In this document: positions 20,583 to 60,451 of the stretch, piece after piece
Position numbering within the stretch: the first letter of the stretch is position 1
Layout: each line of letters opens with the position of its first letter
Translations under genes and position numbers: made by a program
NCBI GenBank assembly: GCA_017991775.1
Contig: JAGOPV010000004.1
Location: 2,847-66,846, forward strand
From: Candidatus Levyibacteriota bacterium
GTDB lineage: Bacteria > Patescibacteriota > Microgenomatia > Levybacterales > UBA12049
Direction: 5' to 3'
Length of the DNA: 64,000 nt
The notes under the pieces: model-generated
Seen by the model: the letters and a program-made list of their open reading frames with translations, nothing else
Told to the model about the DNA's origin: nothing
The model's database searches: none

Positions 20583-20646
20583 AATTTATTTAGCTTCTAG
20601 GAATTAGTTCAGCAACTATATGCTAGCTGCTATTTCCTAGTTACTA

Positions 20647-26623: not shown

Positions 26624-26712
26624 ACTTAAGGGTAATTCTGTGGTAGAATCTGCGTGAACATTGACACGTTGACGTTAGTTATCATGCTGCGAGGCTAGAA
26701 GGTGAACAAATC

Positions 26713-27108
26713 ATGTTCTTGATACTGTTATTCTTACTGGCTTGTGCAGCTTGCTGCATAAAGTTCTCGCCGCCAGGCACAGGAATTAACAAATCCGGCA
26801 TGGTCGGAACCATCTTAGGATTAATTTTTGGACTCATGGTGGCTCTTTTTCTTGGAGCCTGGCAGCACCAAGAGTCTGTGACCAATAAAGTTCCTCTGGA
26901 GGCATCCAGCTTCGAAGGAACAGTTAGAATCAAAGAGGGAGATGTTAATTGGCCAACATTGGCCTTCACCGACAACCTCTGCGATGATGGTGATTGGGGA
27001 TGGGATCCACTTGATCTTTCCATCTCCAAATGGTGGTGGATCTGCATAGATGTAAACTCAGACGGCGTCCTTCTCGTTCCGAGGGGATATCTAGATCCAC
27101 CAAGCTAA
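26713..27108 (+). CDS. Small Cys-rich secreted/lipoprotein-like hypothetical protein
   Basis: Hydrophobic N-terminus LLFLLACAACC; followed by intrinsic terminator; leader shares CATTGACACGTT with the 34.5-kb array leaders. Confidence 0.5.
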   Translation: MFLILLFLLACAACCIKFSPPGTGINKSGMVGTILGLIFGLMVALFLGAWQHQESVTNKVPLEASSFEGTVRIKEGDVNWPTLAFTDNLCDDGDWGWDPLDLSISKWWWICIDVNSDGVLLVPRGYLDPPS

Positions 27109-34311: not shown

Positions 34312-34555
34312 ATAAAATCACCCCCGTTAGAAGCTCTTGCTCTTTTTGTAAAGCAAAAAAGCTTAGAGATTCTTACGTCCCTCATAGTGAACTTTCGGCT
34401 GCATGGCTGTAAGCCTTGAGACGAACGTGAACGACGTGGGACCAAGCCTACTTAGAGTAGCGTAGATTCTTAAGATATCCTAAGCACTACTATATGTGAA
34501 GGTAGTATACAAACCATTTCGTCTTCGTGCAACTGAAAAAAACCTATAGGTTTGC

Positions 34556-34620
34556 TATAATCCCCTTGTTCATTGACACGTTAGGATCGAATCAGGCTAA
34601 CGCCTGGAAAGGACAGGACC
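34556..34620 (+). promoter_or_regulatory. Conserved promoter -10 (TATAAT) plus 5' leader, copy A of 3
   Basis: TATAAT 34556-34561 followed by CCCCTTGTTCATTGACACGTTAGGATCGAATCAGGCTAACGCCTGGAA, identical to copy B. Confidence 0.6.
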
Positions 34621-35088
34621 ATGATCTATCCATTGGTCTTAGTAGTCATCTTTGTTCTTGCCTTTGGCAAGCTCTTCAAGCATTCGAGCTTCAAAGATAT
34701 GACTACTCTTGCGAAAAAGATCTGCTCTTACAGCCTGGGAATTGTATTTGGTGGACTCCTAGGAGTCTTCGTTGGACTTCTTTTGGACAACATCTCCCCA
34801 GCAAGTGAGATTCGCAGCGTTCCCTACACACTAGATCAATTCTCCTCGCCTAAAGGAACGCTTGTTTTTGTGGGCGAGGAGTATGTCTGGTATCTGCTCA
34901 ATGGAGAGGAGAAAAAGACACATCTAAGTGCTGTCGAATTCGTTGAGGCCGACTCGGCAACACTTACCGTACAAGGAGAATACTGCATGCGAGACTTTTG
35001 GTCAATCCTGCTGCGAGGATTTTGTTTCGGCAACGAAACATTTGTCTTCGAAGTTCCACCAGAATCCATTCATCAATTCAAAACCTAA
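34621..35088 (+). CDS. Small membrane protein, array paralog 1 (2 TM + about 90-aa beta-rich C-domain)
   Basis: 155 aa; own promoter/leader and terminator; architecture shared with 35245 and 35886 ORFs. Confidence 0.6.
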   Translation: MIYPLVLVVIFVLAFGKLFKHSSFKDMTTLAKKICSYSLGIVFGGLLGVFVGLLLDNISPASEIRSVPYTLDQFSSPKGTLVFVGEEYVWYLLNGEEKKTHLSAVEFVEADSATLTVQGEYCMRDFWSILLRGFCFGNETFVFEVPPESIHQFKT

Positions 35089-35112
35089 CATCAATCAACC
35101 CAATAATCACAC

Positions 35113-35145
35113 CCCGTCCCGCTAAGCGGGACGGGGTTTTTCTTT
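35113..35145 (+). terminator. Rho-independent terminator (conserved module)
   Basis: CCCCGTCCCGCTAAGCGGGACGGGG hairpin then TTTTTCTTT. Confidence 0.8.
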
Positions 35146-35179
35146 ATCTCATCGCTTGTCCTACGCCTTCAGAATATAC

Positions 35180-35244
35180 TATAATCCCCTTGTTCATTGA
35201 CACGTTAGGATCGAATCAGGCTAACGCCTGGAAGGAGTACCAAA
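35180..35244 (+). promoter_or_regulatory. Conserved promoter -10 plus leader, copy B
   Basis: TTGTCC-18-TATAAT then leader identical to copy A over about 50 nt. Confidence 0.6.
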
Positions 35245-35739
35245 ATGATCAATATTCTTTTTGGAGCTAATCTCGGTGTGCTTTTTTGCATTTTCGCTAG
35301 GCTCTTTATCGGGCCTCATCCAGTAGATAATCGCGAGATTAAAGGTTTGGCAGTATTTGGAGCAATCATTGGAACTATTATCACCCTAGTTGCGTCACCA
35401 TGGATTCTGGATAGAGGACCAATGTCCAACGAATCCAAGATCTATCCCATATACCGCCTCCATGACCCCGCCAATGGTCCGTATCTCATCCTTCAACGGG
35501 ATGGCGAATATGTCGCAGACATCGACATAAAGGAAGGGGTCCAACTCGTTCCTATACCTACATTGACGAACTATCATCTCGAAGTGATAATTGCACCACG
35601 TGATGATGCGATCGCAATCGTATCAACAAATAGGTGCATTAACAGAATCACACTCTGGACAATCTGCTGGAGGAGCACCACGGAGGTCACCTATCGAATT
35701 CCGACTGGAACGCAACTTGACCTCCTCTCGTCAACCTAA
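35245..35739 (+). CDS. Small membrane protein, array paralog 2
   Basis: 164 aa; 2 TM + C-terminal domain; flanked by conserved promoter and terminator modules. Confidence 0.6.
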   Translation: MINILFGANLGVLFCIFARLFIGPHPVDNREIKGLAVFGAIIGTIITLVASPWILDRGPMSNESKIYPIYRLHDPANGPYLILQRDGEYVADIDIKEGVQLVPIPTLTNYHLEVIIAPRDDAIAIVSTNRCINRITLWTICWRSTTEVTYRIPTGTQLDLLSST

Positions 35740-35762
35740 CAATCAACATCTTTCATCCATAC

Positions 35763-35797
35763 CCCGTCTCGCATTATGCAGGCGGGGTTTTTCTTTA
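35763..35797 (+). terminator. Rho-independent terminator (diverged copy)
   Basis: CCCCGTCTCGCATTATGCAGGCGGGG hairpin then TTTTTCTTT. Confidence 0.7.
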
Positions 35798-35830
35798 TCT
35801 CATCGCTTGTCCTAAGCCTTCAGATTATTC

Positions 35831-35885
35831 TATAATCCCCTTGTTCATTGACAGATCGTTGCAAGTCACTTGAAGGGAGTAAAAA
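35831..35885 (+). promoter_or_regulatory. Conserved promoter -10 plus leader, copy C (3' half diverged, alternative hairpin CAAG-tca-CTTG)
   Basis: TATAATCCCCTTGTTCATTGACAG shared, then divergent. Confidence 0.5.
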
Positions 35886-36320
35886 ATGCTCTATCCTATC
35901 ATTGGCATAATCATAGGATTAGTCCTAGCATCAATTTCAAGCACACTGAGTGAAATTCTGGGCAAATGGCTAACCGTCCTCCTGTGCGTCGCCTGCACAT
36001 TTATTCTAGGTGCATATATTGGTACATATGCACCACATGATCAACGCAACAATGTATCTTATCTTTCTCCACATCCAATTTCCGAAAATACTCTTATCAT
36101 CTACAATCAGGGTGACGCCTGGTTGTTCATTGATGGAAAGCTTCGGACCATTGGGAGCGAGAAGGTCCATCTCAATCCAAAAACGGAAGGGGTTCTCATT
36201 GAATCCGAAAGAGGCTGCAATAGCAACTTCCTAACACTCTCCATCTGGAGTCTTTGCGACGGAAGTACTGAATTCAAAGTCGAAATTCCAGACGAGTCGG
36301 TGACATATTCACTCGAGTAA
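35886..36320 (+). CDS. Small membrane protein, array paralog 3
   Basis: 144 aa; 2 TM + C-terminal domain. Confidence 0.6.
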   Translation: MLYPIIGIIIGLVLASISSTLSEILGKWLTVLLCVACTFILGAYIGTYAPHDQRNNVSYLSPHPISENTLIIYNQGDAWLFIDGKLRTIGSEKVHLNPKTEGVLIESERGCNSNFLTLSIWSLCDGSTEFKVEIPDESVTYSLE

Positions 36321-36349
36321 TTTCTTTGGATTTCCCGACAACCAGCATC

Positions 36350-36378
36350 CCGTCCCGCTTAGCGGGACGGGGTTTTTC
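36350..36378 (+). terminator. Rho-independent terminator (conserved module)
   Basis: CCCGTCCCGCTTAGCGGGACGGGG + TTTTTCTTT. Confidence 0.8.
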
Positions 36379-36382
36379 TTTA

Positions 36383-40809: not shown

Positions 40810-40926
40810 GATGATAAATTAGGAATCAGTCAATAGGAACTAGGAAATAGTTCCAATATGACATTGTAACTAATTTCTAATTCCTAGTTACTAGCTTCTA
40901 TCTCTGGGGGGGGTACTTGCTATGTA

Positions 40927-43645: not shown

Positions 43646-45004
43646 CTATTTTTTAATAAATGTGAGGAAGTCGTCCTGCATTTTTTGCATTTTTTCTTTC
43701 TCCATATTCGCAATCATCAGCATCGCTTCATCAGATCGCTTAAGAAAATCACGATCAACTTCTGCGATATCTGGATTGACTGTCAGAGCAATGTTATTCA
43801 TCCCCATCAATCTTAGACCATTCAAATTTCTCAAGCGAGATAGCGCGACATACCCTTGTCCTGGCACAAAAGAACGGGAGAGATCGACCTCAGCCGCGTC
43901 CAACGACATACCTTGTGACTTATGCACTGTGATAGCCCAAGCAAGCCGAAGTGGGATCTGGCTGATCGCAGCCACAACATTTCCTTGTCCTGAGCCTGTC
44001 GCAGGATCTTCTTTAACTTCCCAACTCGAAGCATCAACGATGATCTCTGCCCCATCAAAAGTACGGACCTTTGGGTGTCCTTCTTTATCAAAACCTATTA
44101 CTTCTCCCAGTGTACCGTTGACATACCCTACATCCCAATTGTTCTTCACGAACATCACCTGGGCTCCAACTTTTAAGGACAACCTTTCTGGAGCTAGGCA
44201 GGTTTTTCGTAAAGTTTCAACGATCTTGGGACTACCTCGACCTACCATTAAGAAGTCATGTGACTCGCCCTTAAGTTCATCAAGTTCTTTTTTATTAATT
44301 GCATCAACATCTGCATTATGTGTGAACAATTTTGTCGGCTTAGAATACCCTTCTGGATTTTTATCAAGACGCTCTGAGAGAACTTCAACAGTATCTTCAT
44401 TAACCTCTCCAGATCGAATATCACTGAGAACTCGCAAAAAGGATCTATCGCTTTGCCTGAACTGCTCATCTAGATAGCAAATCTGTAGACGCATGTTATT
44501 CCAGACTTCTGCATCAATAACATAGGAAGGCTTCTCACCACCTTTCACGACAGGAGGAAGTTGAAAAAAATCCCCACACATGATTACTTGCATCCCGCCA
44601 AAAGGCTCATAATTTCGCTTAAAGCCTCTACATATTGCATCCACAATATCGAGCTGGTGTGCATGAAGCATCGAGACTTCGTCAATGATCAGGACCTTAG
44701 CAAGCAAAAATCTTTTTCGAAGGTATGACCTCTTCATAAGATCATGGATTTCAGGAGTAGTGATCGTGTCTTTTATCCCCATCCCCGACCAGCTATGAAT
44801 AGTCGTCCCACCCATGTGAGTTGCTGCAATTCCAGTTGAGGCTGTAATACCAACGCTCACTTTTTGCTGCTTAAGATAATCTATATATTGATTGAGCAGA
44901 TGTGTTTTGCCACTTCCAGCAGGACCTGTGAGATAGACATTATGCCCTAGCTTGAGCAGATTGAGGGCATCTTTTTGTGTCATAGGAGAACAGTAGTATA
45001 GCAT
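43646..45004 (-). CDS. Pif1/RecD-family SF1 helicase
   Basis: Walker A GPAGSGKTH, motif II IIDEVSM, Pif1-like GDFFQLPPV; start ambiguous because 8-nt repeat supplies ATGs in all frames (ORF track 45052). Confidence 0.8.
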   Translation of the reverse strand: MLYYCSPMTQKDALNLLKLGHNVYLTGPAGSGKTHLLNQYIDYLKQQKVSVGITASTGIAATHMGGTTIHSWSGMGIKDTITTPEIHDLMKRSYLRKRFLLAKVLIIDEVSMLHAHQLDIVDAICRGFKRNYEPFGGMQVIMCGDFFQLPPVVKGGEKPSYVIDAEVWNNMRLQICYLDEQFRQSDRSFLRVLSDIRSGEVNEDTVEVLSERLDKNPEGYSKPTKLFTHNADVDAINKKELDELKGESHDFLMVGRGSPKIVETLRKTCLAPERLSLKVGAQVMFVKNNWDVGYVNGTLGEVIGFDKEGHPKVRTFDGAEIIVDASSWEVKEDPATGSGQGNVVAAISQIPLRLAWAITVHKSQGMSLDAAEVDLSRSFVPGQGYVALSRLRNLNGLRLMGMNNIALTVNPDIAEVDRDFLKRSDEAMLMIANMEKEKMQKMQDDFLTFIKK

Positions 45005-45059
45005 GACTGCATGACTGCATGACTGCATGACTGCATGACTGCATGACTGCATGACTGCA
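45001..45059. repeat. 8-nt tandem repeat (GCATGACT) x about 7.4 overlapping the helicase start region
   Basis: Read directly; each unit carries an ATG on the coding (minus) strand. Confidence 0.9.
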
Positions 45060-45064
45060 AAATT

Positions 45065-45607
45065 CTAGTCGTCGAAGTCTTTGTAGACTTTTGAGCCCAC
45101 GAGAGTTTTTTTCTTACCATCAGAACTTGGGATCAATTCTTCAATAATTTGTGAGTAACGAAATGGGTTGTGAATCATGTACATATCCTGATATTTTGTA
45201 CCTCGAAAATCAGATAGCGAGACAGTACCAAAGTTGAACATCCTACCATACGCACTTTGATAGACCTCGACCATCCGCACATGACTCAAGAGAAATTTTT
45301 CCTCCTTTTTAAAAAAGACTCCCCTGCGATGATAAAGTGTCGTCGATGTAATTTCATAATATTCATTCAGCCACTGCAAAACGATATAGATAGATAACGA
45401 CATTTTAATAAGAAGAAATGTAATAAATATTGGAATGGTGAAGACCGTAAATTCAAAACCTGCAAAGGTGTCGCGAATCATAGCCAGCGATGAGAAAGAA
45501 AAGACTGCAAGTCCTCCAGACATGATTTCAATAAATAGTAATTTCGCGAGAAGAAGAGAGATGCTTGTTCTAACATTGACGTGTGTGACTTGTATCGGCT
45601 TCTCCAT
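45065..45607 (-). CDS. bPH_2/YdbT-like membrane protein (bacterial PH domain)
   Basis: Two TM helices + PH-like domain pattern. Confidence 0.55.
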   Translation of the reverse strand: MEKPIQVTHVNVRTSISLLLAKLLFIEIMSGGLAVFSFSSLAMIRDTFAGFEFTVFTIPIFITFLLIKMSLSIYIVLQWLNEYYEITSTTLYHRRGVFFKKEEKFLLSHVRMVEVYQSAYGRMFNFGTVSLSDFRGTKYQDMYMIHNPFRYSQIIEELIPSSDGKKKTLVGSKVYKDFDD

Positions 45608-46456: not shown

Positions 46457-47509
46457 ATGTCCACTACTCCGATAGATGAGTTAAAAAAAGAACTTCGTAA
46501 AGAAGAGCTTGTCTACGCCATGGACACCAAGCCTGGCTTGATGCGCCAAAAGATTCAAAAGTCATATGCCTACTATGACCTTGATGGTAAAAAGGTCACG
46601 GATAAAAAGACTAAGGATAGGATTGATAGCCTAGGCATCCCTCCAGCTTGGGAAAATGTCTGGATATCCCCCCTCACCAATGGCCACCTACAAGCAACTG
46701 GATTTGATGAAAAAGGTCGTAAGCAGTACATCTACCATCCGTCATGGATCAAAATTTCCCAGGAAAATAAATTCGCAAAAATGGTCGACTTTGGCATGAA
46801 CCTTCCTAAAATCAGAGGTAAAGTTGCATACGACATGCGAAATGATGAATTGAGTCGTAAAAAGATAATCGCGACTGTTATCTGGCTACTCGAGCATACC
46901 TTTATCAGAATTGGTAATGAGCAATATTCAAAAGAAAATGCATCCTTTGGACTCACGACTCTTCGAAATCGCCATGCAAAGGTACGTGGTAAGGAAGTCA
47001 CTTTTCACTTCACGGGCAAAAGTGGTGTTGAGAATATCCTCACTTTCTCAAATCCAACTGTCGCCAAAACTATAAAGAAATGTATTGAGCTTCCAGGCTT
47101 TGAACTTTTTCAGTACATCGATGATGATGGCACCAAGCACACGATCGAGTCCTCAGATGTAAATGAATTCTTAAAAGAGATCACCGATGACACTTTTACT
47201 GCTAAAGACTTTAGAACTTGGGGCGCGACCAATCTATCAGCCGATATTTTCTATGACACGGGGGATCCCGAAGATTCGAAAACACTGAAGAAAAACGTTA
47301 AGGAGACTATCAAACAGGTCTCAGAGCATCTTAATAACACTGTATCAGTCTGTCGTAGCTACTACATCCACCCAAGCGTGATACAGACTTATGAGAAGAA
47401 GATCCTCTTACCCTTTATGAAACGCCATGATGGGAAAAAGTCTGATATCAATGGGCTCTCATGGAAAGAATCAGCCCTGATCAAACTTCTTCGCGAACAC
47501 CCCCTTTAA
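46457..47509 (+). CDS. Type IB DNA topoisomerase (bacterial TopIB, poxvirus-like)
   Basis: GRKQYIYH, FTGKSG, KDFRTWGAT and catalytic-Tyr motif RSYYIHP characteristic of TopIB. Confidence 0.85.
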   Translation: MSTTPIDELKKELRKEELVYAMDTKPGLMRQKIQKSYAYYDLDGKKVTDKKTKDRIDSLGIPPAWENVWISPLTNGHLQATGFDEKGRKQYIYHPSWIKISQENKFAKMVDFGMNLPKIRGKVAYDMRNDELSRKKIIATVIWLLEHTFIRIGNEQYSKENASFGLTTLRNRHAKVRGKEVTFHFTGKSGVENILTFSNPTVAKTIKKCIELPGFELFQYIDDDGTKHTIESSDVNEFLKEITDDTFTAKDFRTWGATNLSADIFYDTGDPEDSKTLKKNVKETIKQVSEHLNNTVSVCRSYYIHPSVIQTYEKKILLPFMKRHDGKKSDINGLSWKESALIKLLREHPL

Positions 47510-47510
47510 C

Positions 47511-47555
47511 TAGGAACTAGGAACTAGGAACTAGGAACTAGGAACTAGGAACTAG
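47511..47555. repeat. 7-nt tandem repeat (TAGGAAC) x about 6.4
   Basis: Read directly, begins 2 nt after topIB stop. Confidence 0.9.
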
Positions 47556-47573
47556 TTAAATATAACCTATAGT

Positions 47574-50961: not shown

Positions 50962-51070
50962 AAAAAGAAGCACCGGCAATGCAGAATGAATGCCGGCTAC
51001 TTCTTCTCCTCTCAAATTGAGGATGCGAAGCAAAACCGCTTCAATCCGCACCGAAATCCGGTGCTTAATG

Positions 51071-51289
51071 TCACATTTTCTCCCATGGTTTTCGGTGGAA
51101 AAATACTGGCATGATGCCAACAACTCCCACCAGGGTGTACGATGCAGCGATCGCATCTCTGGTCTCAAGACCAAAAGCGCGAAAGCTTACATCTATAAGT
51201 GGCACTCCCACTATCCCCACCATGAGATAGCAGAGGAATTTTGCGAGCCAGTAGACAGCACCCTCTGCCCAAGCAAGCATTTTGTGCAT
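51071..51289 (-). CDS. Small membrane protein (2 TM), last gene of the defence operon
   Basis: 72 aa, start overlaps stop of upstream ORF (ATGA-type coupling); GC-rich. Confidence 0.35.
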   Translation of the reverse strand: MHKMLAWAEGAVYWLAKFLCYLMVGIVGVPLIDVSFRAFGLETRDAIAASYTLVGVVGIMPVFFHRKPWEKM

Positions 51290-51290
51290 A

Positions 51291-51644
51291 CTACTCTCCG
51301 TTCGTTAATCGCGGACTTGCCAGGAAGCAAGTTGCGATGAACTCGTGAGTGACCTCGCACTCATCGCCATTGATGATCATGTATCCGCCACTCGCAAGTC
51401 TTTCGGCGAATGTGAATTCCTTCTCGAGCTTGTTCTTGCGAACTCGTGACTCATCATAGAACTTCTTGAAGTCAGCTTTGGTAAAAGGCGCAAGCCCTTC
51501 ATCGCGATGCTGCAAGAATTCTACAACCTTGCGAGCTGCCTCCTCAATACTATTATCGAAACCACCGAATGCTCCCGCGAATCCCCGCTTCTTATTAATG
51601 TGGTGAAGGCCGAGTGGGTAATTTTCACCGATTGGTGTGTTCAT
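51291..51644 (-). CDS. Hypothetical protein (defence-operon member)
   Basis: 117 aa, GC-rich, no recognised motif. Confidence 0.45.
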   Translation of the reverse strand: MNTPIGENYPLGLHHINKKRGFAGAFGGFDNSIEEAARKVVEFLQHRDEGLAPFTKADFKKFYDESRVRKNKLEKEFTFAERLASGGYMIINGDECEVTHEFIATCFLASPRLTNGE

Positions 51645-51721
51645 TTTGTCCTCCTGGACGAAAAAGTGCTATCCCTTGATAGTATCAACGTATTATAGGA
51701 CAAACCGAGGGAAATTGAAAG

Positions 51722-52066
51722 TTAAATTTTACGTATGAGGACGGTCCGAGGCTTTGCTCCTTCTGCAGCACTAATAACTCCGTTATCATAAAGCATTTGT
51801 ATAAGTTTAGCTGCCTTCTCATAGCCAATGAGAAGTTTCCGTTGCAACAACGCAGGACTTGCAGTACCAATTTCCATTACATACTCCAGTGCTGACTCAT
51901 AATATTCATCATCAATATCTTCTTTAGAAATATACTCCTTTGGATCTGGAAAAAAGCTCAGAAACTCTTCAACTCTTTTAAGGCGGATTTTGAGGTTCGT
52001 TACATCGTATCGCAACTGTATTAGCTCTTTCTTTTCTTCGTCATTCATTGGCTTAATATACACCAT
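51722..52066 (-). CDS. Stand-alone FtsK-gamma winged-helix DNA-binding domain protein
   Basis: C-terminal ASPALLQRKLLIGYEKAAKLIQMLYDNGVIS...GAKPRTVL closely matches the FtsK gamma (KOPS-binding) domain consensus. Confidence 0.7.
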   Translation of the reverse strand: MVYIKPMNDEEKKELIQLRYDVTNLKIRLKRVEEFLSFFPDPKEYISKEDIDDEYYESALEYVMEIGTASPALLQRKLLIGYEKAAKLIQMLYDNGVISAAEGAKPRTVLIRKI

Positions 52067-52083
52067 CTAAAATGATTTTTACA

Positions 52084-52833
52084 CTATGAAACCTTTTCAA
52101 CTGCCTCTCTATAATTGCAGAAGTCACACTCAGGAGAAGCTGGAGGGATTTGATCTCCCTTGAGGCAATCGACAGCATCGCGGACTGTCTGCTCGACCCA
52201 ACTATCATCACCCTCATAGCCAAGAAGTCTCACTTTGAACTCTAACTTTCCATCAAAGGCTTCTTTATCACTATCTCCATTGCAGTATACAAAGTATCCA
52301 GTTCTTGATACCTTAAATCCATTCTGCCTGAAAAGCCACTGATAAGTCTCCATCTGTCTTTTATATCCATCCTGCCAGTCAGCATCAAGATTCACTTCCC
52401 CAGTCTTTGAAGTTGCCTTATAGTCAACGATGATCAGCTCACCATCTGGTCTGACCCAGACATCATCAACTCCCCCAGTCACTAAGATATTCGTACCAGC
52501 AACTTGTGCTGTGATCCCGCGGCGCAGCGAATCTCGCCATTCATCCATACGCTCGTCCTGAAATGGCACAGCATCTACTCCATATTCTTTCATTAATGGA
52601 TGACTACTACCATTGGCTCGATGCACATCGAATTCTTTTTTAAGTAGTGCATCAACTGCGCTATTAAGGGAGAACGGAAATCCAGGAGGTCGACCCACGC
52701 CCAACTTGCGATCAAGATAGAAGCACTGCTGACAACTCAAAAAGAGATCTATCTTCCCCCGACTGAGCCTGAACGACTCCAATGAGGCATCATACATATT
52801 TCTAGAACGTTGTGAGTTGTAGTAATGAGACAT
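52084..52833 (-). CDS. Cas4/RecB-like PD-(D/E)XK nuclease with putative Fe-S cysteines
   Basis: GGVDDVW...DGELIIVDYKAT (D...(D/E)xK), N-terminal CQQC and C-terminal C-x12-C-x2-C cysteines. Confidence 0.6.
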   Translation of the reverse strand: MSHYYNSQRSRNMYDASLESFRLSRGKIDLFLSCQQCFYLDRKLGVGRPPGFPFSLNSAVDALLKKEFDVHRANGSSHPLMKEYGVDAVPFQDERMDEWRDSLRRGITAQVAGTNILVTGGVDDVWVRPDGELIIVDYKATSKTGEVNLDADWQDGYKRQMETYQWLFRQNGFKVSRTGYFVYCNGDSDKEAFDGKLEFKVRLLGYEGDDSWVEQTVRDAVDCLKGDQIPPASPECDFCNYREAVEKVS

Positions 52834-52877
52834 ATAATTGAATTATATCTTATTATTTTAACTTCTAAAGAACTATT

Positions 52878-53570
52878 CTAAATTTTGCCATTAAGTCTGT
52901 CATCTAATTTAGAGAGTTTTCCTTGCTGCATATCTGCTGGACATAGATACTCTTCGGAGAGATGTTGAGAAATATAATATTCGCCGTCTTCTTCCATCCC
53001 CATCTCTTCAAGCCATCTCTCTGCAACTGAATCATTTAACTTAAGCATTTTGGGCTGGATTAACCGTAAAATTGAAAAATATTGCTCAATTCTAGATTCG
53101 ATATTCTCCTCAATGTTTCCATTTGCATGAGCATATGTACTTCTAATCTTAACAAGCTCCTTTCCTTTTTCTACGACTTCACTGTCTACATTTATTATTT
53201 TCAAAAAATCGAAAAGTTTTCCCTCTGGAATATAACTTAAATTGCTCACTAAGCAATGACTCGGAATCACTCCTCCGTTATCTCTTATGGGAGGATTTTG
53301 CCTAAGCATCTCAAGATCATTGGGCTTGCGCACGGAGCAAGAGCCAAGAGTGGTTAAATAATCTTCTGCGTGAAATGCGCTGATACGAAAAACCTTATAT
53401 TGAATAGCGAACATGCATAACAGGTGGAATGGGAGAATCGCAAAAGGCTTAACAGGATGCTCTTTTTCAATAAGAGCTAGGAATGCTCCCCAAAGATGAT
53501 CAATATAAGGACCCAGTGATGCTGGTTCTAGTGGCAGAAAATCAAATATTTCATAATATCTTTCGTCCAT
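52878..53570 (-). CDS. Hypothetical protein with HEPN-like R-x4-H motif (possible Abi-type RNase)
   Basis: KIRSTYAHANG contains Rx4H; 4-nt gap to hsdMS stop; assignment speculative. Confidence 0.4.
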   Translation of the reverse strand: MDERYYEIFDFLPLEPASLGPYIDHLWGAFLALIEKEHPVKPFAILPFHLLCMFAIQYKVFRISAFHAEDYLTTLGSCSVRKPNDLEMLRQNPPIRDNGGVIPSHCLVSNLSYIPEGKLFDFLKIINVDSEVVEKGKELVKIRSTYAHANGNIEENIESRIEQYFSILRLIQPKMLKLNDSVAERWLEEMGMEEDGEYYISQHLSEEYLCPADMQQGKLSKLDDRLNGKI

Positions 53571-53573
53571 TTA

Positions 53574-56075
53574 CTAAGATTTCCAAACTTCTGCGATTTT
53601 TTCTCTAACCCTTTCCTCATAGATTTTAATTATTTTTTTTGTCGATTCAATTAATGCACGCTCAATTTCAACATTTTCCACAATTTGCTTTTGAACTTCC
53701 AGACTAGGGAGAGGGATCTCTTGATTAGTCACGAAATCTCTCGTTACCCCAGCCACGCTCATACCAACTGCATTATTTTTTATTCTCTCTGCAACAATCT
53801 CTGACACTAGCCATAGGTATTTTGCATCTAAATTAGGGTCTTTAGACACTAACGCGGTCAAGTCCTGGTTAATAGCATAATCCTGGTCTGCAATAGCAAA
53901 CTTACCAACAGACACACGCGTTATTAATATTGTTGAACCTTTTGGGGCAATTTTACTTGAGCTATTTTTCAAACCTTCTTCTGTAATCATTTCTGAACCC
54001 TTGATCTTGTGCTCATCAGTAAAATACCTGGCCGAAAGCCATGGAATATTGCCGCCCCAATAATTCTCCATCTCTCTTGAAGGAGTTCCGCCTCCAAAAA
54101 TGTCACATAACTGTCCTAGCTTCGCCATACTCCACTCAGGATCGATATCAAACTTTGGCTTCCAATTTTTAACAATTTGTTCTGCTCCTGAAATAATTTT
54201 TTGGTATCCCTCAATCTCCCCAGAAATTTTCTTCTGAATTTCAAGTGGAGGGAGTGGAATTTCTAGATTATATGCATCATTTCTATTAAGACCAGGAATA
54301 CCAGCTCCCGCTCTTAATAATTTCAAGTTTAGCGAAGCAAGTATAAAGTAAAGATACTTTAAATAAACCTTCTTCTCGTCTAGTAATTTTACGTAGTAAG
54401 TAGTGTCGATCGGAAAACAGCTCTCATCCTCCCAAACTACTTCACCAGCCGATCCTTTCCTTCCGATAATTATTACCGGGCCTTTAACTAAGAAACTTAT
54501 ATGAAATCCACTTCTACCATTTGATCCCATAACTGGATAAGGTCCTTCTACTCGGTCCCTCTCGGGTAAACTTTTCCCGTACTCGAACGTACATACATCT
54601 CGAAGTTTTACCATTGAACTCTTGACATCTTTCTCTGCGCCTCCAAAAGTGTATCTTTCCCAGGACAAATTATGACTCTCACTCTCTAAAATTTCTTTCC
54701 TTGATACAAAATTTATATTTGGATGTCCGTCAATTGCATGCTCTCCTTCAGGCCAACCATTAGCTGAAAATGAATTTCCAGAGATTATATGCTTTTTGTA
54801 CCTTTCAATTGCATCCAAAGCGAGTGGAATATCATTGAATTGAGATGGTGACCTTTGTGCGCTCAGATTAAATCCATCAGAAGTTAACTTAACAAATAAA
54901 ATGTGATTTACTTTTTTTACAGCTTCTTTATCTATAAATAAAATACTTGTCTTAACACCAGCGTATGGATTAAAGACTCCTGAAGGCAGGGATACTACGC
55001 ACCATAATCCTTTTTCAATTAACATTTCTCTTATCTTTCTGTATGCAAATGAATTGTTAAAAATAACTCCTTCTGGAACAATGACTCCAAGCCTTCCATT
55101 GTCCGTAAGATGATCAAGCATATATCTTAGGAACAGCACTTCTGTAGCGCCAGTATTCATCTGCAATTCTTGAGCCACACTATCTCTATCTATCGTTCCA
55201 CTAAATGGTGGGTTGGCAAGAATCACGTCATATTTATCACGATTACCTGCTGTATCTGTCAGTGTGTTTTGTCTTACTAAGCGAGCATTTTGAAGCCCGT
55301 GGAGATAGAGATTCATCATCCCAAACTTGATCATATCCTCATCACTGTCAAACCCACTGAAAGTGTGTTCATATAAAAATGTATGCTCTTTAGAATTTAA
55401 TTGATCAAAAGAGCCGCCTGTCTCTAGCACTACCTCGCTCGTATTATTCTTTCGCAAATATTCAAATGCTTTGACTAAAAATCCTGCAGTGCCAACTGCT
55501 GGATCTAATATTGTCTCCCCTTTCTGAGGAGCAATGACATTCACCATAAAATCAATAATATGACGCGGAGTTCTGAATTGTCCCGAAGTACCTGCCTGAG
55601 ATAACTTACTCAAAAGGTACTCATAAGCATCTCCGAATATATCTCTATGATTTGTCTTGCCTGCCTTTTCTGCTAATTTGGCAAACTCATCAATCTCATG
55701 AACAACAACCCTCAAAGTTGGCTGATCATAAAGTTTGATATGTGCATTTCTGAATATCAATTTAACTGTCTTATTTGTTGTACTCTCAGGTATTTTACGG
55801 AAACATTCCTCAAGAGCTACGAATAACGCTTCTGCATTAAGACTAAGCAAATTTTCCCAACGATATTTTTCAAGATCTCCATCAAAAACAATATGATCAG
55901 CATCATTAATACCTAATTGACGATATTCATCATCCTTATATGAAAGAGCTCTCATGAAGAGGAGGTAATTGATCTGCTCAATAATTGTCGGGTGACTCGC
56001 AACACCAGCACCAAAAAAACGATCCATAAGACCGTCAATCTTTCTAAGAACCTCGCTTGTTGTAATTTCTTTCAT
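53574..56075 (-). CDS. hsdM: Type I R-M N6-adenine DNA methyltransferase fused to specificity subunit (HsdM-HsdS, two TRDs)
   Basis: HsdM_N region, motif I DPAVGTAGFL, motif IV NPPF(SG), followed by two HsdS-type target-recognition domains with central/terminal conserved helices. Confidence 0.8.
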   Translation of the reverse strand: MKEITTSEVLRKIDGLMDRFFGAGVASHPTIIEQINYLLFMRALSYKDDEYRQLGINDADHIVFDGDLEKYRWENLLSLNAEALFVALEECFRKIPESTTNKTVKLIFRNAHIKLYDQPTLRVVVHEIDEFAKLAEKAGKTNHRDIFGDAYEYLLSKLSQAGTSGQFRTPRHIIDFMVNVIAPQKGETILDPAVGTAGFLVKAFEYLRKNNTSEVVLETGGSFDQLNSKEHTFLYEHTFSGFDSDEDMIKFGMMNLYLHGLQNARLVRQNTLTDTAGNRDKYDVILANPPFSGTIDRDSVAQELQMNTGATEVLFLRYMLDHLTDNGRLGVIVPEGVIFNNSFAYRKIREMLIEKGLWCVVSLPSGVFNPYAGVKTSILFIDKEAVKKVNHILFVKLTSDGFNLSAQRSPSQFNDIPLALDAIERYKKHIISGNSFSANGWPEGEHAIDGHPNINFVSRKEILESESHNLSWERYTFGGAEKDVKSSMVKLRDVCTFEYGKSLPERDRVEGPYPVMGSNGRSGFHISFLVKGPVIIIGRKGSAGEVVWEDESCFPIDTTYYVKLLDEKKVYLKYLYFILASLNLKLLRAGAGIPGLNRNDAYNLEIPLPPLEIQKKISGEIEGYQKIISGAEQIVKNWKPKFDIDPEWSMAKLGQLCDIFGGGTPSREMENYWGGNIPWLSARYFTDEHKIKGSEMITEEGLKNSSSKIAPKGSTILITRVSVGKFAIADQDYAINQDLTALVSKDPNLDAKYLWLVSEIVAERIKNNAVGMSVAGVTRDFVTNQEIPLPSLEVQKQIVENVEIERALIESTKKIIKIYEERVREKIAEVWKS

Positions 56076-56076
56076 C

Positions 56077-58479
56077 TTATATATTGACTAAAGGACTTGC
56101 TTGGATATCGCTTACTAATTCAAGAAGTTCTTCTTTGCTGTCAAATTCTTCCAGCCACCCACTCATTAGATACGCTTGAGAAAATTCTGGTCGGGTCAAA
56201 AAAGATAAATTATTTGACAAAATAATTTCTGTGCGAAGGTTTTTATCCTCGATCAGATGACCTGCCAAGTACTTAACCATCTGAGTTCTTCGCTGAGACC
56301 CTTCTCCATCATTATTTGCGAACTTATTGACGAGGCCCTGCTTAAATTCTGCAATTTGCTCATCTCTTGTAGGAAGTTGAGACTTACCCATTGCAGCGAG
56401 AAAAAAGTCCTTTACCCCTGCAACAATTCGATGACTCTGGCGAAGGGACTCTTCGTTGAAATAATATTTTGGCTTATCTAACAACTCACTACCTACCTCA
56501 GACATCAGCTCCTCAATTGCTTCTGAGTCATCGATCAAACGCTCAATCTTATCCTTATTTTTCTCTACATAACTTCTGACACTCTTTGTCCATTCATCTT
56601 GGTACATATTTCGGTCAACTACATCTCCTTCATCAAGACCATATTTTATAAGATCTCTTGTGGCGACAAAATCATTCATCTGACTTATTGGAGTATGAGC
56701 ATAAACAGGAACTTCACCATCCGCACCAGTTGCTGAGCCATGGACGAATGGAAGAGGCTCACCTGAGCCCTGGACGCGGGAGAGAGAAGTTTTCTCTTTA
56801 GGAATATTTAAAGGCTCATCCCAATCATGCTTCTCGTTGAAGTAGTCAATAACTCCAGCAAAATCATGCATAACAAAACGCTCTTTTTTAATTTCTGGAC
56901 AAAGCCTTGTACCACGACCTTTTATTTGCTGATACGTAGTTGGATCAAAAATAGCACGAGCTAATACAATATTTTGAATTTCTGGAGCATTAAATCCTGT
57001 TGATAGCATGTCAACTGTGACAGCAACTCTTGGAAGCTTATTCTCTGGGTTGGCAAAATCTTTTGCAATATCATGAGCTCCTCTAACATTTGATGTCACA
57101 ACTTCCGCGAATCGTCCATTATATTCAGGCATCAAATCATTCAGTATCTTACTCAGCGCAACAGCATGGCTTTGAGATACCGCGAAAACTAGAGACTTTC
57201 CAATTTCACCATTTGGTGAACGGTCTGCGTAATCTAGAAATTCTTGCATCATTGCCATATTGCGCTTAGGAAAAAATACTTTTTGCTCTAGGTCGCGAAT
57301 TTTAAGACTTGTTCCCTCCTCCAGCTCAATGTCGTCAAGTTTTGTAATACCTTCTTCACTCAGAGCTTGGTATGTCAAAGACGTCTTAGCTTTTCTGTAC
57401 ACTGGTGAAATCAAGTAGCCAGCTTTTGATCCATCTTGGATCGTATAGCGGAATGTTGGCTGACCATCATCACATTCAAAATATCGATAGGTATCGCGCT
57501 GGATGCGGGCTTCTAGCTTGCGCGGGTCCTCAGACGAAAGCTTCTCAATATCGATATTTTTAAGAAAGTCTTTGGGAGTAGCGGTAAGTCCGACCTTTAT
57601 TGCGCCTACGAAATGATCTACTGCAGAGCGGGCCTCAGGGGTATAAATACTTCTGTGAGCCTCATCATGAATAATCAAATCAAAAGCACCAGGAGTAAAA
57701 TCTTTTTTTCCATGTAGTCCAAGAGATTGAATCGTTGCTATCACTACATTGCTTCCGGTCAGATTCTGACGCTTACCACCCCAATATATTCCAACCATCG
57801 ATATATGTCGCAAGATTCGCTCAAATTCTTGCTTGGTCTGAATTGCAAGTGACTGACGATCGACTATAAAAAGAACTCGACTAGCATTGTTGGTGCGTAA
57901 AAATTTACTGATAATGAGTCCAGCCAGCACTGTCTTCCCAGTACCTGTAGCCATCTCTAAAAGAAAGGCCCGCTTCTTCTTTTCATCGTACCCTTTAGCA
58001 ATCGCATCCCACGCATTGATTTGAAAATCCCGAAGCCTTATTTGATCAATAACGTCAATAAAATAATCCTCATTTACACTTTTCTGCATCAAGGGCTCAA
58101 CATTGCTCACGCGTCCAGCTGCCCTTCTTCGCTCTAAGTCACTCTGCGAAAAGAAACCACTATCGGATGGAATAGCATCGCCATGCCCAAGATCCCAAAA
58201 ATAAATCTTCTCGTCATTTGCGAGATAAATAAAATCAACTTGAGGATACTGAAGTTCTACATATGATCTAGCTTGATTTTTTGCAGTATATGGATCGATA
58301 TCATGCGATTTAGCCTCAATGATTGCGATAGGCATTCCCTTAGAGTCCTTAAGGACATAGTCTGAACGGCCCGCTGCTCCATGATCCTCAAAGATAACCT
58401 GAGAGCTATCCTCGATATCCCACCCAGCTTCGCGTAACTTACGATCAATTACTACCCTCGAAAATGATTCATTTACCAT
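56077..58479 (-). CDS. hsdR: Type I restriction enzyme R subunit (HsdR-like): N-terminal PD-(D/E)XK nuclease + SF2 DEAH helicase
   Basis: N-terminal DYVLKD...IIEAK nuclease motif, Walker A MATGTGKT, DEAH (HDEAHRS), motif VI QIKGRGTR; 800 aa, shorter than typical HsdR. Confidence 0.8.
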   Translation of the reverse strand: MVNESFSRVVIDRKLREAGWDIEDSSQVIFEDHGAAGRSDYVLKDSKGMPIAIIEAKSHDIDPYTAKNQARSYVELQYPQVDFIYLANDEKIYFWDLGHGDAIPSDSGFFSQSDLERRRAAGRVSNVEPLMQKSVNEDYFIDVIDQIRLRDFQINAWDAIAKGYDEKKKRAFLLEMATGTGKTVLAGLIISKFLRTNNASRVLFIVDRQSLAIQTKQEFERILRHISMVGIYWGGKRQNLTGSNVVIATIQSLGLHGKKDFTPGAFDLIIHDEAHRSIYTPEARSAVDHFVGAIKVGLTATPKDFLKNIDIEKLSSEDPRKLEARIQRDTYRYFECDDGQPTFRYTIQDGSKAGYLISPVYRKAKTSLTYQALSEEGITKLDDIELEEGTSLKIRDLEQKVFFPKRNMAMMQEFLDYADRSPNGEIGKSLVFAVSQSHAVALSKILNDLMPEYNGRFAEVVTSNVRGAHDIAKDFANPENKLPRVAVTVDMLSTGFNAPEIQNIVLARAIFDPTTYQQIKGRGTRLCPEIKKERFVMHDFAGVIDYFNEKHDWDEPLNIPKEKTSLSRVQGSGEPLPFVHGSATGADGEVPVYAHTPISQMNDFVATRDLIKYGLDEGDVVDRNMYQDEWTKSVRSYVEKNKDKIERLIDDSEAIEELMSEVGSELLDKPKYYFNEESLRQSHRIVAGVKDFFLAAMGKSQLPTRDEQIAEFKQGLVNKFANNDGEGSQRRTQMVKYLAGHLIEDKNLRTEIILSNNLSFLTRPEFSQAYLMSGWLEEFDSKEELLELVSDIQASPLVNI

Positions 58480-58631
58480 ATTACTATGCTTATTATACTC
58501 CTCCTATAGGGTTTTATAAAGCTGAGGGAGATCCTAAAACAAAGTTCTCCCGGATTAATCGGTATTCAGGTTGACATCATAACTATTTACTAACTTCTAG
58601 TTACTAGCTCCTAATCTGATATACTTCACAA

Positions 58632-58704
58632 CAGTTCTTTGACATTCTGTTACGTTACTCCCCCACGACTTTGTGGAAGGAGCGAAATTCAAAAGGAGTT
58701 GGTC
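58632..58704 (+). promoter_or_regulatory. Conserved leader/promoter module, copy 1 of 2 (CAGTTCTTTGACATTCTGTTACGTTACTCCCCCACGACTTTGTGGAAGGAG)
   Basis: About 55-nt block about 90% identical to 59332-59390; -10-like element just upstream in both copies. Confidence 0.55.
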
Positions 58705-59226
58705 ATGTTCCAAACTGCAGGAGAATTAACAATCCAAGACGTGAGTGTAGCTATTTTGGCTGCAATCATAACGCTCTTCTGTGTTTGCTACTTAAGCAAG
58801 TACACTTTGTTCTTGGCGATGCTTGGCTATATTGCAATCATCTCCATGATTGCAGGTGACATCGCTGAGCAATTTAGTCAAAGCAGTCAAACAACTGCCC
58901 TCGCGATACTGATCGCGGCATTCTGCTTCGAAATTCTTTTTATTGCGACCCCCATCAGTAAAAAAAAGTACGATGAGGTTGCGAAGGAGGCGATGGAGTT
59001 CCGTGCGATCATTGCTGCTCATGAAGCACGCAGGCAGCTAGATCGCAAAGAAGCGCCTATCAAATATATTCAAGATCTCAGGGTACCACATGCACTAAAC
59101 AGTGAATTCTGGAAACTCATAGAAGAGGAGTTCCGGAATTTAAACATAAGGATCACCTCCACCTCTGTGGAGAAGCTCGGAAGAACTCTTACCTTCGCCA
59201 ATGAGGTCACACCCAAAACATCGTAA
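58705..59226 (+). CDS. Small membrane protein, pair paralog 1 (3 TM + cytoplasmic domain)
   Basis: ATG at 58705 preceded by AAAGGAG RBS; ORF track start 58639 is a TTG inside the conserved leader. Confidence 0.55.
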   Translation: MFQTAGELTIQDVSVAILAAIITLFCVCYLSKYTLFLAMLGYIAIISMIAGDIAEQFSQSSQTTALAILIAAFCFEILFIATPISKKKYDEVAKEAMEFRAIIAAHEARRQLDRKEAPIKYIQDLRVPHALNSEFWKLIEEEFRNLNIRITSTSVEKLGRTLTFANEVTPKTS

Positions 59227-59244
59227 CAGCTTAGATCATCACCT

Positions 59245-59278
59245 CCCCGTTTCGCCACTTGGCAGACGGGGATTTTTT
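59245..59278 (+). terminator. Rho-independent terminator (conserved module)
   Basis: CCCCGTTTCGCCACTTGGCAGACGGGG then TTTTTT. Confidence 0.8.
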
Positions 59279-59331
59279 ATACTCACGTCTACAGACTTGT
59301 CGCAAGATTGATGAATAGACTATAATTCCCC

Positions 59332-59406
59332 TCAGTTCTTTGACATTCTGTTACGTTGCTCCCCCACAACTTTGTGGAGGGAGAGAAAATTCGAAAGGAG
59401 TAACTC
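59332..59406 (+). promoter_or_regulatory. Conserved leader/promoter module, copy 2 (TATAAT 59321-59326 just upstream)
   Basis: CAGTTCTTTGACATTCTGTTACGTTGCTCCCCCACAACTTTGTGGAGGGAG. Confidence 0.55.
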
Positions 59407-59937
59407 ATGTGCCTTTCTCTCATTGAAATCTATCTGCTCATTGGAACAGTTGGACTGTTGAGCATTGCATTTGCAATCTGGACATTTGGCGGAAACGACA
59501 TGTCTCCGATACTACTCACTTGCATTGTAGTACTTACCTTGATGATCTTCATCAGGGGGTACCTGAACGAGCTGACTCTCGCACCAATCTTTGTGATGTC
59601 ATTGCTCATATGCATTATCACAATGATTCAGTTCCAGAAATCGTCGCCGCTCATGCCTCGAAAAGAGGTCCATGCATTCACTGTCGCTACGATCACACGT
59701 CGAGCCAAGCACACAGCAGAGCAACTGATGAGTCAAATGGATCCAGATGAAGAACACTTTGAAATCCACATAAGTACAGCTGGGGTTCCATGGAGACTCA
59801 CGGATCTATTCATCTCAGAAGTTGCAACGGAATTTTCCAAACACAGGCTATCTCTCTCATCACTTGAGAGAGCAAAAAACGGTCGTCAAGTGGTACTTGA
59901 ACGAATACCAACCAGAATGATGAGGACCAACGAGTAA
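59407..59937 (+). CDS. Small membrane protein, pair paralog 2
   Basis: 176 aa; 3 TM + cytoplasmic domain; AAAGGAG RBS. Confidence 0.55.
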   Translation: MCLSLIEIYLLIGTVGLLSIAFAIWTFGGNDMSPILLTCIVVLTLMIFIRGYLNELTLAPIFVMSLLICIITMIQFQKSSPLMPRKEVHAFTVATITRRAKHTAEQLMSQMDPDEEHFEIHISTAGVPWRLTDLFISEVATEFSKHRLSLSSLERAKNGRQVVLERIPTRMMRTNE

Positions 59938-60006
59938 GCAACGTCTACTCCTTAGGAGAACATCTGGCCCAACATCACCTTCGTAACAGAAACAGATTCC
60001 ACACCT

Positions 60007-60041
60007 CCCCGTTTCGCCATTTGGCAGACGGGGATTTTTTT
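60007..60041 (+). terminator. Rho-independent terminator (conserved module)
   Basis: CCCCGTTTCGCCATTTGGCAGACGGGG then TTTTTTT. Confidence 0.8.
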
Positions 60042-60339
60042 AAGAAAAAATGATGAGGCCAACCACGATCACTGCATCCAGAAGACAGATTGATAAATTA
60101 CCGATGATGAGTGGCAATTGTTTTTTAAAAATACCATACAGCATCCAAAGACCGGAAAGAATGGTATAAGACCCCCACGTCAAAAGCGAGACACCCGCGA
60201 CATTATGATCAACCCAGACACTAATGAGCTGTGGGATTGTGACGATTATCGAAAAGAAGACAATAGGATAAATTGCGTAGTCAAAAAAGCCTTTTTTGAT
60301 TTTTCTAGCTTTTGCTTTTCGATGAGGAGGTATGACCAT
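60040..60339 (-). CDS. SemiSWEET / PQ-loop (MtN3-like) 3-TM sugar transporter
   Basis: 99 aa, three TM helices, PQ motif in TM1 (TIPQLISVW). Confidence 0.55.
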   Translation of the reverse strand: MVIPPHRKAKARKIKKGFFDYAIYPIVFFSIIVTIPQLISVWVDHNVAGVSLLTWGSYTILSGLWMLYGIFKKQLPLIIGNLSICLLDAVIVVGLIIFS

Positions 60340-60451
60340 ATAATAACGATATCATAGTTAGGGATTAGGAAATAGGAGCTAGGAATTAGTTTAAAAAAAG
60401 AGCGGTCCGATAAATGAATATCGGACCGCTAAGAACAGACACTGGGTCCTT

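Follow-up and report, generated by a model that had tools for sequence, protein, structure and literature searches.

A probable strain-variable slot for small membrane-protein genes with conserved leader and terminator modules in a Candidatus Levybacteria contig

The window analysed here is a stretch of 64,000 nucleotides from a contig of an uncultured member of Candidatus Levybacteria (Patescibacteria, also known as the candidate phyla radiation, CPR) with a GC content of 41.9%. Two tandem genes near its end, each enclosed by a conserved leader and a conserved terminator, encode small proteins with three transmembrane (TM) segments. With a probability of roughly 0.6, this locus is a strain-variable expression slot, in which conserved control modules enclose coding content that is exchanged or diversifies, and its occupants in this strain are two ancient, strongly diverged paralogues, or alleles resident together, of a lineage-restricted, orphan 3-TM protein of the inner membrane. 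Purifying selection acts much more strongly on the control modules than on synonymous sites. The coding sequences evolve rapidly, and between strains they differ in some cases by more than divergence in place would produce. The locus is a new instance of known things, namely diverged tandem paralogues with conserved flanks and promoter reuse, and does not establish a new class of element.

Anatomy of the two tandem units

Unit 1 (58617-59278) and unit 2 (59297-60041) are adjacent and form a direct repeat with a period of 701 bp. Each contains a -10 element, a leader of ~80 nt, a Shine-Dalgarno (SD) sequence, an open reading frame (ORF) for a 3-TM protein and a near-identical intrinsic terminator, and the SD sequence AAGGAG sits 6 nt 5' of each ATG. 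An earlier reading of the sequence, referred to below as the original prediction, had proposed this anatomy, which is borne out by the consensus matches, a check of the ORFs and the hairpin folds. It had also called the units self-contained, and a promoter, a conserved leader, a small membrane-protein ORF and a terminator are indeed present in both. The features of the locus are the following.

58617-58625, + strand: extended -10 element of unit 1, TGaTATACT, as read from the sequence; conserved as TGATATACT in L005, the orthologous locus of a related strain
58626-58704, + strand: leader (5' untranslated region, 5' UTR) of unit 1, with an invariant 5' block containing TTGACA (58639-58644), a C-rich/GGAG hairpin (58658-58682) and the SD sequence AAGGAG (58693-58698)
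58705-59226, + strand: ORF1 (B1), 173 aa, with three TM helices and a predicted cytoplasmic alpha/beta C-terminal domain; KBC15_01770/KBC15_01775 are the NCBI names of the two ORFs
59221-59278, + strand: terminator module 1, with TCGTAACAG, which overlaps the stop codon of ORF1, and a T6 run after a bulged hairpin of 12 bp (59244-59272)
59297-59326, + strand: promoter of unit 2, TTGTCG, an 18-nt spacer and TATAAT (59321-59326), 10 of 12 matches
59327-59406, + strand: leader of unit 2, with TTGACA (59340-59345), hairpin (59359-59383) and the SD sequence AAGGAG (59395-59400)
59407-59937, + strand: ORF2 (B2), 176 aa, with the same architecture as ORF1
59938-59980, + strand: 43-nt spacer between ORF2 and TCGTAACAG, the slot of a partner ORF in related strains
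59981-60041, + strand: terminator module 2, with TCGTAACAG and a T7 run after the hairpin (60006-60034); directly adjoins the PQ-loop gene at its stop codon
60040-60339, - strand: PQ-loop gene, convergent with unit 2

The 51-nt leader consensus has exactly two matches in the window (58632-58682 and 59333-59383), where shuffled sequences lead to an expectation of none, and the core is identical at 48 of the 51 positions. The repeat extends to 68 nt with 88% identity (58620-58687 against 59321-59388), and the full leaders of 85-86 nt, measured from the -10 element to the ATG, are 85% identical. Conservation between the copies starts at the -10 element, the sequence 5' of it being unrelated, and is highest over the first ~25 transcribed nt and the hairpin's left, C-rich arm. 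The leader of this pair (B) can be written as TTTGACATTCTGTTACGNTNCTCCCCCAC. From its -10 element (59321) to the ATG, the unit 2 leader differs from that of L005 at 3 of 86 positions, while the proportion of synonymous differences (pS) from L005 is 0.37-0.40 in most neighbouring genes, which places the leader under constraint; in the PQ-loop gene pS reaches 0.64.

The terminator is repeated with similar precision. Its 27-nt consensus has exactly two matches in the window (59245-59271 and 60007-60033; none expected), identical at 26 of 27 positions, and the repeat extends to 39 nt with 97% identity, the range over all comparisons being 88-97%; the terminator can be written as CCCCGTYTCGCCAYTTGGCAGRCGGGG. 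Both copies fold into hairpins of -20 kcal/mol, with z-scores of -4.98 for module 1 and -4.84 for module 2, followed by the T6 and T7 runs. In four homologous sequences the stem retains all 12 pairs, two of which have changed on one side only, in a way that preserves pairing. A compensatory double change had been suspected from L005, and the formal count shows one-sided pair-preserving changes only. With a GC-rich stem-loop, a U tract and a location 3' of the stop codon, both modules are well supported as predicted Rho-independent terminators. They share with intrinsic terminators in general the GC-rich 12-bp hairpin directly before T6-T7, but differ in lying inside a longer conserved module (TCGTAACAG...CAYCTCCCCG) and in having a stem near-identical to that of a terminator in a second array of cassettes in the same window (array A, at 34.5 kb).

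Two further readings of TTGACA in the leader were considered and rejected. A leader peptide, or an N-terminal extension, starting at the TTG of TTGACA would be in frame with ORF1 only and out of frame in unit 2, in L005 and in L006, the contig of another relative; in addition, all three differences between the leaders of the two units would be non-synonymous and there is no SD sequence 5' of the TTG. The hexamer might also be the -35 element of a second, downstream promoter, but no copy has a -10-like hexamer 16-18 nt downstream. Elsewhere, GTTCTTTGAC/ATTCTGTTAC might be read as a CtsR-like or direct-repeat operator, with 7 of 10 matches counted by eye only; it is not common to the leaders of array A.

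Diverged proteins in a slot that varies between strains

The AlphaFold models of ORF1 and ORF2 contain three N-terminal TM-length helices and a C-terminal alpha/beta region, with secondary-structure elements in the same predicted order, at modest confidence (predicted local distance difference test scores, pLDDT, of 68 and 63). The two ORFs had been described as weakly similar, which is confirmed: BLASTP aligns the proteins of 173 and 176 aa with 23% identity and an E-value of 0.62, not significant alone, while a shuffle test gives z-scores of 4.8 for the whole proteins and 3.7 when limited to their C-terminal domains; across comparisons the identity is 23-24%. A third protein, P0004 (180 aa, encoded on L006), matches ORF2 with an E-value of 2e-9 and ORF1 with 1e-3, and the four known family members align nearly without gaps. 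Because of this transitive link and the four-way alignment, ORF1 and ORF2 are true but very remote paralogues within a tiny, lineage-restricted family. A profile search of 1.84 billion cluster representatives recovers only the two window proteins and P0004 (E-value of 1e-6), three clusters altogether.

ORF1 is an orphan, the only copies of which are identical ones of the same strain. ORF2 has an orthologue of 63-65% identity in L005/L001. The ratio of non-synonymous to synonymous substitution (dN/dS) for ORF2 relative to L005 is 0.41, against 0.04, 0.06 and 0.17 for neighbouring genes. The identity of the ORF2 region to L005 is mosaic, with blocks of 95-97% at 59321-59445 and 59634-59713 and 60-75% elsewhere. 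A phage- or plasmid-type origin was rejected, as there is no phage DNA match, no PHROG match and no viral-contig match.

A very recent local tandem duplication, the scenario that the original prediction had named as its own refutation, would account for two adjacent units in direct repeat with a 701-bp period, and for leader and terminator similarity limited to these two copies in the window. The coding regions speak against it. Their DNA is 61% identical, compared to 56.6 +/- 1.3% for shuffled sequence, while the flanks are conserved at 85-88% (leader) and 88-97% (terminator), and because the ORFs are thus near random similarity, with proteins only 23-24% identical, no recent duplication took place. 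The two leaders have themselves diverged by 15%, comparable to the 3-19% found between strains. A recent origin of the pair is hence given almost no weight.

The proposal of a genome-wide family of such cassettes is not upheld. Within the window the B leader and terminator are confined to this locus, and a leader 20-mer, searched in 596 Gb of species-representative genomes (the source metagenome-assembled genome, MAG, not among them), finds a single contig, L005, which carries the syntenic, orthologous locus. The Joint Genome Institute (JGI) metagenomes contain no match to the B leader, and viral contigs contain no match either. The searches, which covered the window and these collections, thus found the two copies and L005, and no dispersed copies.

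The gene order in L005 is the tail of an MgtC/DUF4010 gene, the leader, the ORF2 orthologue (183 aa), an overlapping ORF of 88 aa, the terminator, the PQ-loop gene, a gene for a 200-aa protein and a DUF2207 gene. L005 (CAZHKZ010000043.1) is deposited in a MAG labelled 'uncultured Gammaproteobacteria', and it is collinear with the Levybacteria window at ~80-86% identity; the label is probably a binning error. In L006 the order is TATAAT, the leader, P0004, an ORF of 133 aa, the terminator and the PQ-loop gene. L007 is a more distant relative, with a PQ-loop protein 67% identical to that of the window, and contains at the equivalent position small ORFs unlike these, with TATAAT-N12-TTTACA, a hairpin and an SD sequence in front of them and a terminator of their own.

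By their PQ-loop genes, the window, L005 and L006 are equidistant (87-88% amino acid and 78-81% DNA identity), and their leaders are 81-97% identical. The slot proteins of the same three strains are only 21-26% identical, except for ORF2 and its L005 orthologue (63%). Divergence in place is insufficient to explain proteins at 21-26% next to PQ-loop proteins at 87-88%. Relative to L005, the window strain lacks the partner ORF, contains the extra cassette ORF1 and contains a restriction-modification (R-M) island:

50962-58612, strand not assigned: strain-specific island of ~7.65 kb that L005 lacks, inserted between unit 1 and the MgtC/DUF4010 gene

Its genes code for a protein with an FtsK-gamma domain, a PD-(D/E)XK/Cas4-like nuclease, HsdR (800 aa) and a fusion of HsdM with HsdS (833 aa), and two further ORFs are unassigned. 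An origin of the single-copy state of L005 by crossing-over between leader 1 and leader 2 was considered and dropped; the variant sites are patchy (1-like, 2-like, 1-like, 2-like) and shared ancestry fits equally well.

The partner ORF of the relatives (L005 816-1082, 88 aa; L006 988-1389, 133 aa) encodes a soluble orphan within the same leader-terminator unit as the 3-TM gene. The two versions match each other with an E-value of 2e-20 and 45% identity, share the motif RLLIAV..GGD, and have no family match and no relatives in the JGI metagenomes. The ORF is absent from the window, where the 59938-59980 spacer may be interpreted as the scar of its deletion.

Proposed mechanism and alternatives

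In the favoured explanation, each gene would be an autonomous monocistronic unit with a promoter, a 5' UTR of ~80 nt, an SD sequence, an ORF and a Rho-independent terminator that insulates it from the next unit. The 5' UTR would begin with an invariant block of ~25 nt, with TTGACA at about +6 to +12, followed by the C-rich/GGAG stem-loop and the canonical SD sequence. The invariant block would be the binding site of a regulator, either as a DNA operator or as RNA, and partly common to array A, while the stem-loop near the SD sequence may stabilise the mRNA, tune initiation through access to the SD sequence, or both. The repeated leader and terminator modules would act as homology arms, at which unequal crossing-over, allele replacement and differential loss would make the identity and number of cassettes, and the presence of the partner ORF, vary from strain to strain. 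The proteins themselves might have a conflict-type role, at the interface with a phage, a toxin or a host, as suggested by the pattern of diversification and the adjoining strain-specific type I R-M island.

If this explanation is correct, the locus is a compact CPR example of regulatory DNA that is conserved while its protein cargo turns over (leaders 81-97%, proteins 21-26%). It would place a strain-variable membrane-protein slot beside a mobile R-M island, the kind of place in which Patescibacteria are expected to encode determinants of interactions with hosts, phages or episymbionts. For a group that lacks genetic tools, the short invariant 5' block and the strong, insulated promoter-terminator pairs could then supply expression parts or markers of a regulon.

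Several points weigh against this explanation. The promoters, transcription starts and terminators are read from sequence alone, and the comparative sample consists of three or four short contigs of uncultured relatives. High intergenic conservation is not unique to the leader, since the intergenic region 60340-60450 is also 92-97% identical to L005. Allele replacement is indistinguishable from a history in which strains lost different copies of an ancestral multi-copy array. As to protein function, the cassette proteins have no match in Pfam, NCBIfam, PHROGs or PADLOC, and a Foldseek search against the PDB gives none with an E-value of 0.001 or below. The proposed role of RNA structure is likewise unproven: there is no compensatory change in any of the 18 pairs predicted for four leaders, the folding energy of the whole leader is no better than that of shuffled sequences (z-scores of +0.47 and -1.23), and the right arm of the hairpin carries changes in L006 that break pairs, while the left arm is invariant.

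These last results also determine what became of the CTCC...GGAG pairing that had been described in the leader. It stands as a predicted hairpin; covariation does not support it, and the altered right arm in L006 weakens the helix. Because the right arm varies while the left arm is invariant, selection appears to act on the sequence rather than on the structure, a pattern which we infer to fit a protein-binding operator or an RNA site better than a riboswitch-like fold. The leader could nevertheless be a cis-regulatory RNA (a riboswitch, a thermosensor, or a switch operated by a small RNA or a protein), in which an anti-SD CUCC, a decoy GGAGGGAG and the 5' segment UUGACAUUCU compete for the SD sequence and the start codon. 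It is far more conserved than synonymous sites, its local hairpin has a C-rich arm complementary to GGAG, and in four of four leaders the consensus structure has UGA.AUUCU paired to GGAGU...UCA at the SD sequence and start codon. Neither the count of compensatory pairs nor the folding z-scores lend significance to this fold, and the L006 changes break pairs of the hairpin. The leaders of array A share only the first ~12 nt. Rfam 15 has no match at the gathering score in the region, the sole match at E-values up to 1 being BtsR1 on the opposite strand, with 22 bits against a threshold of 66 bits, and a known RNA family was rejected on these grounds. A switch of this kind is accordingly regarded as rather unlikely.

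The variability of the slot is also explained if the genes form a small conflict module (toxin/immunity, abortive infection, or holin-like with a cytosolic partner) diversified by phages or competitors, which is compatible with the favoured explanation. In its favour are the extreme divergence between strains, an elevated dN/dS, the adjoining strain-specific type I R-M island with its Cas4-like nuclease, and the existence in relatives of a two-gene form, a 3-TM protein with a soluble partner of 88-133 aa. On the other side stand the lack of a match in PADLOC, on which membership of a defence system was rejected, and in PHROG, Pfam and NCBIfam, a dN/dS below 1, the absence of adjacent toxin or phage genes and of similarity to phage DNA, and a partner gene that is dispensable in the window strain. 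A conflict module is thus tentative, although it is the least doubtful of the alternatives.

Hypervariable tandem arrays of rapidly evolving paralogous or allelic genes with conserved flanks are known, for example, from the orphan immunity genes of polymorphic toxin and bacteriocin loci. The present locus resembles these arrays in its conserved flanks, divergent cores, strain-variable copy number, small membrane proteins and location near a defence island. It is unlike them in having no adjacent toxin, bacteriocin, transporter or regulator genes and no family signature, and in that each unit is insulated by a terminator.

Variable ORFs between conserved imperfect hairpins, with a content that differs between strains, might suggest an integron-like or other site-specific gene-cassette system in which the hairpins are recombination sites. 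Integron cassettes are typically promoterless ORFs with a 3' attC site, an imperfect palindrome of 57-141 nt with GTTRRRY cores, and have intI and attI nearby. Here, each cassette has its own -10 element and SD sequence, the hairpins are 27-29 nt long and terminator-like, with T runs after them, and a reading of the sequence reveals no GTTRRRY core. The flanking genes scanned against Pfam, from 49.6 kb to the window end, include no integrase. Such a system is thus exceedingly improbable.

Array A and other repeated sequences in the window

The locus was predicted to mirror an array at 34.5 kb, which is the case, with three units and a module collinear between the arrays:

34555-36382, + strand: array A, three cassettes with ORFs at 34621-35088, 35245-35739 and 35886-36320

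The proteins of array A contain two TM segments and a Cys-containing, beta-rich domain, and are related to one another (z-score of 12.8 for A1 and A3). They have no similarity to the B proteins (z-scores of -1.1 to 0.7). The intergenic modules of A and B are collinear and consist of the terminator stem, a CTTGTC -35 element, GAATAnACTATAATyCCCCT and GTTCwTTGACA, and the unit 2 promoter aligns with CTTGTCC...TATAAT of array A. The local alignment score of the modules is 42, compared to 15.9 +/- 2.1 for shuffled sequences (0 of 1000 as high; z-scores of 10.6-12.4), and over GAATAnACTATAATyCCCCT..GTTCwTTGACA 31 of 33 positions match. Scores of other intergenic regions against the B module are 14-20, which is background. 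The shared module can be written as ACTATAAT-CCCCT-GTTCWTTGACA. The shared leader logic that had been proposed therefore stands for the terminator, -35, -10 and TTGACA elements common to A and B; it does not extend to the proteins, which are unrelated, nor to the leaders beyond TTGACA, where A and B differ. The sequence similarity of the modules can be read in two ways: either the two arrays share an origin in the very distant past, or a terminator-promoter module has been reused.

The second way leads to a portable terminator-promoter-leader module, a 'putative mobile promoter' or an element akin to a miniature inverted-repeat transposable element (MITE), that has spread to unrelated small membrane-protein genes. 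The A and B modules are collinearly similar though their proteins are unrelated, one A terminator stem (CCCCGTCTCGC...GCAGGCGGGG) nearly equals the B terminator of L005, and L007 keeps a related TATAAT-CCyCCCAG-N4-TTTACA start before entirely different ORFs. Putative mobile promoters and promoter reuse in prokaryotes have been described (Matus-Garcia, Nijveen and van Passel 2012, PMC3575422). As in these, the upstream block of the present locus, 85-88% identical over 68-86 nt, precedes coding sequences without similarity at the nucleotide level, and its conserved part matches no Rfam family or insertion-sequence element. The block differs from the published ones in its position, which is -86 to -1 (starting at the -10 element and reaching the start codon) where theirs is -150 to -50 (PMC3575422), in being paired with a conserved terminator, and in that the copies are tandem and local, not dispersed. 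With respect to non-paralogy, the coding sequences are 61% identical, against 57% for shuffled DNA, and would get through the published filter; the proteins are nevertheless remote homologues, so that paralogy suffices for the pair.

Short repeated intergenic modules that supply transcription signals are also known as Correia, ERIC and REPIN elements. Unlike these elements and MITEs, the modules have no terminal inverted repeats or target-site duplications as read at their edges, exist as two B and three A copies, all in arrays, and have no match outside the lineage. They are confined to the two arrays in the 64 kb, and no dispersed copy occurs in any of the collections scanned (species genomes, JGI metagenomes and viral contigs). 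The spread of a mobile module is therefore quite improbable, and the favoured explanation, a strain-variable slot with diverged paralogues, is retained for the B pair.

A -10-like hexamer followed 11-13 nt later by TTGACA, inside the predicted transcript, occurs seven times in the window against ~1.1 expected, with only three to four of the occurrences being independent. The sites are 26645-26666, 22741-22718 (minus strand), 34556-34578, 35180-35202, 35831-35853, 58620-58644 and 59321-59345; one of them lies 5' of a ychF-like GTPase gene and one 5' of the small membrane-protein gene 26713-27108. The L007 contig has TATAAT-N12-TTTACA at ~988-965. As a general motif, this spacing is no more than suggestive. 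The product of 26713-27108 is a small membrane protein of 131 aa with the architecture of array A and weak similarity to A1 (z-score of 3.1), and TTGACACGTT is common to the leader of this gene and those of A1 and A2. The gene probably belongs to the A family, as a diverged member that lies apart from the array.

At its most speculative, the A/B module, echoed 5' of 26713-27108, 5' of the ychF-like gene and in the L007 slot, would be a lineage-specific regulatory device of Levybacteria. The -35-like hexamer 11-13 nt after the -10 element would then be an operator or a checkpoint that engages sigma factor in early elongation, co-ordinating hypervariable envelope-protein cassettes whose flanks double as homology arms for their exchange between strains. 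This idea is less probable still than a mobile module or an RNA switch.

Two other kinds of repeat lie next to promoters in the window. On the minus strand at 44993-45067, 5' of the ORF 43646-45052, there is a perfect tandem octamer, (TGCAGTCA) x7 as read on that strand. It is directly followed by a TATACT -10 element and by the point where a PIF1-like helicase gene (Pfam PIF1, E-value of 1e-37) probably starts. The tract covers the -35/spacer region and its unit length is not divisible by 3, making it a candidate slipped-strand switch for phase variation.

The second kind is a heptamer-periodic tract of TAGGAAC/CTAGTTA type, found in intergenic regions just 5' of promoters at 47508-47557, 40817-40900, 58572-58613, 60356-60391 and ~20590-20640. 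At 47508-47557 the heptamer AACTAGG is repeated perfectly at least five times, and the copy at the B locus is the following:

58572-58613, + strand: CTAGTTA/TAGGAA-like tract 5' of the unit 1 promoter, in the region common to the divergent hsdR; repeated at 40859-40900 with 83% identity over 42 nt

The tract region 60340-60450 is the one mentioned above for its 92-97% identity to L005, compared to ~80-85% for the flanking coding DNA. These tracts may be UP-like elements or arrays of regulator sites.

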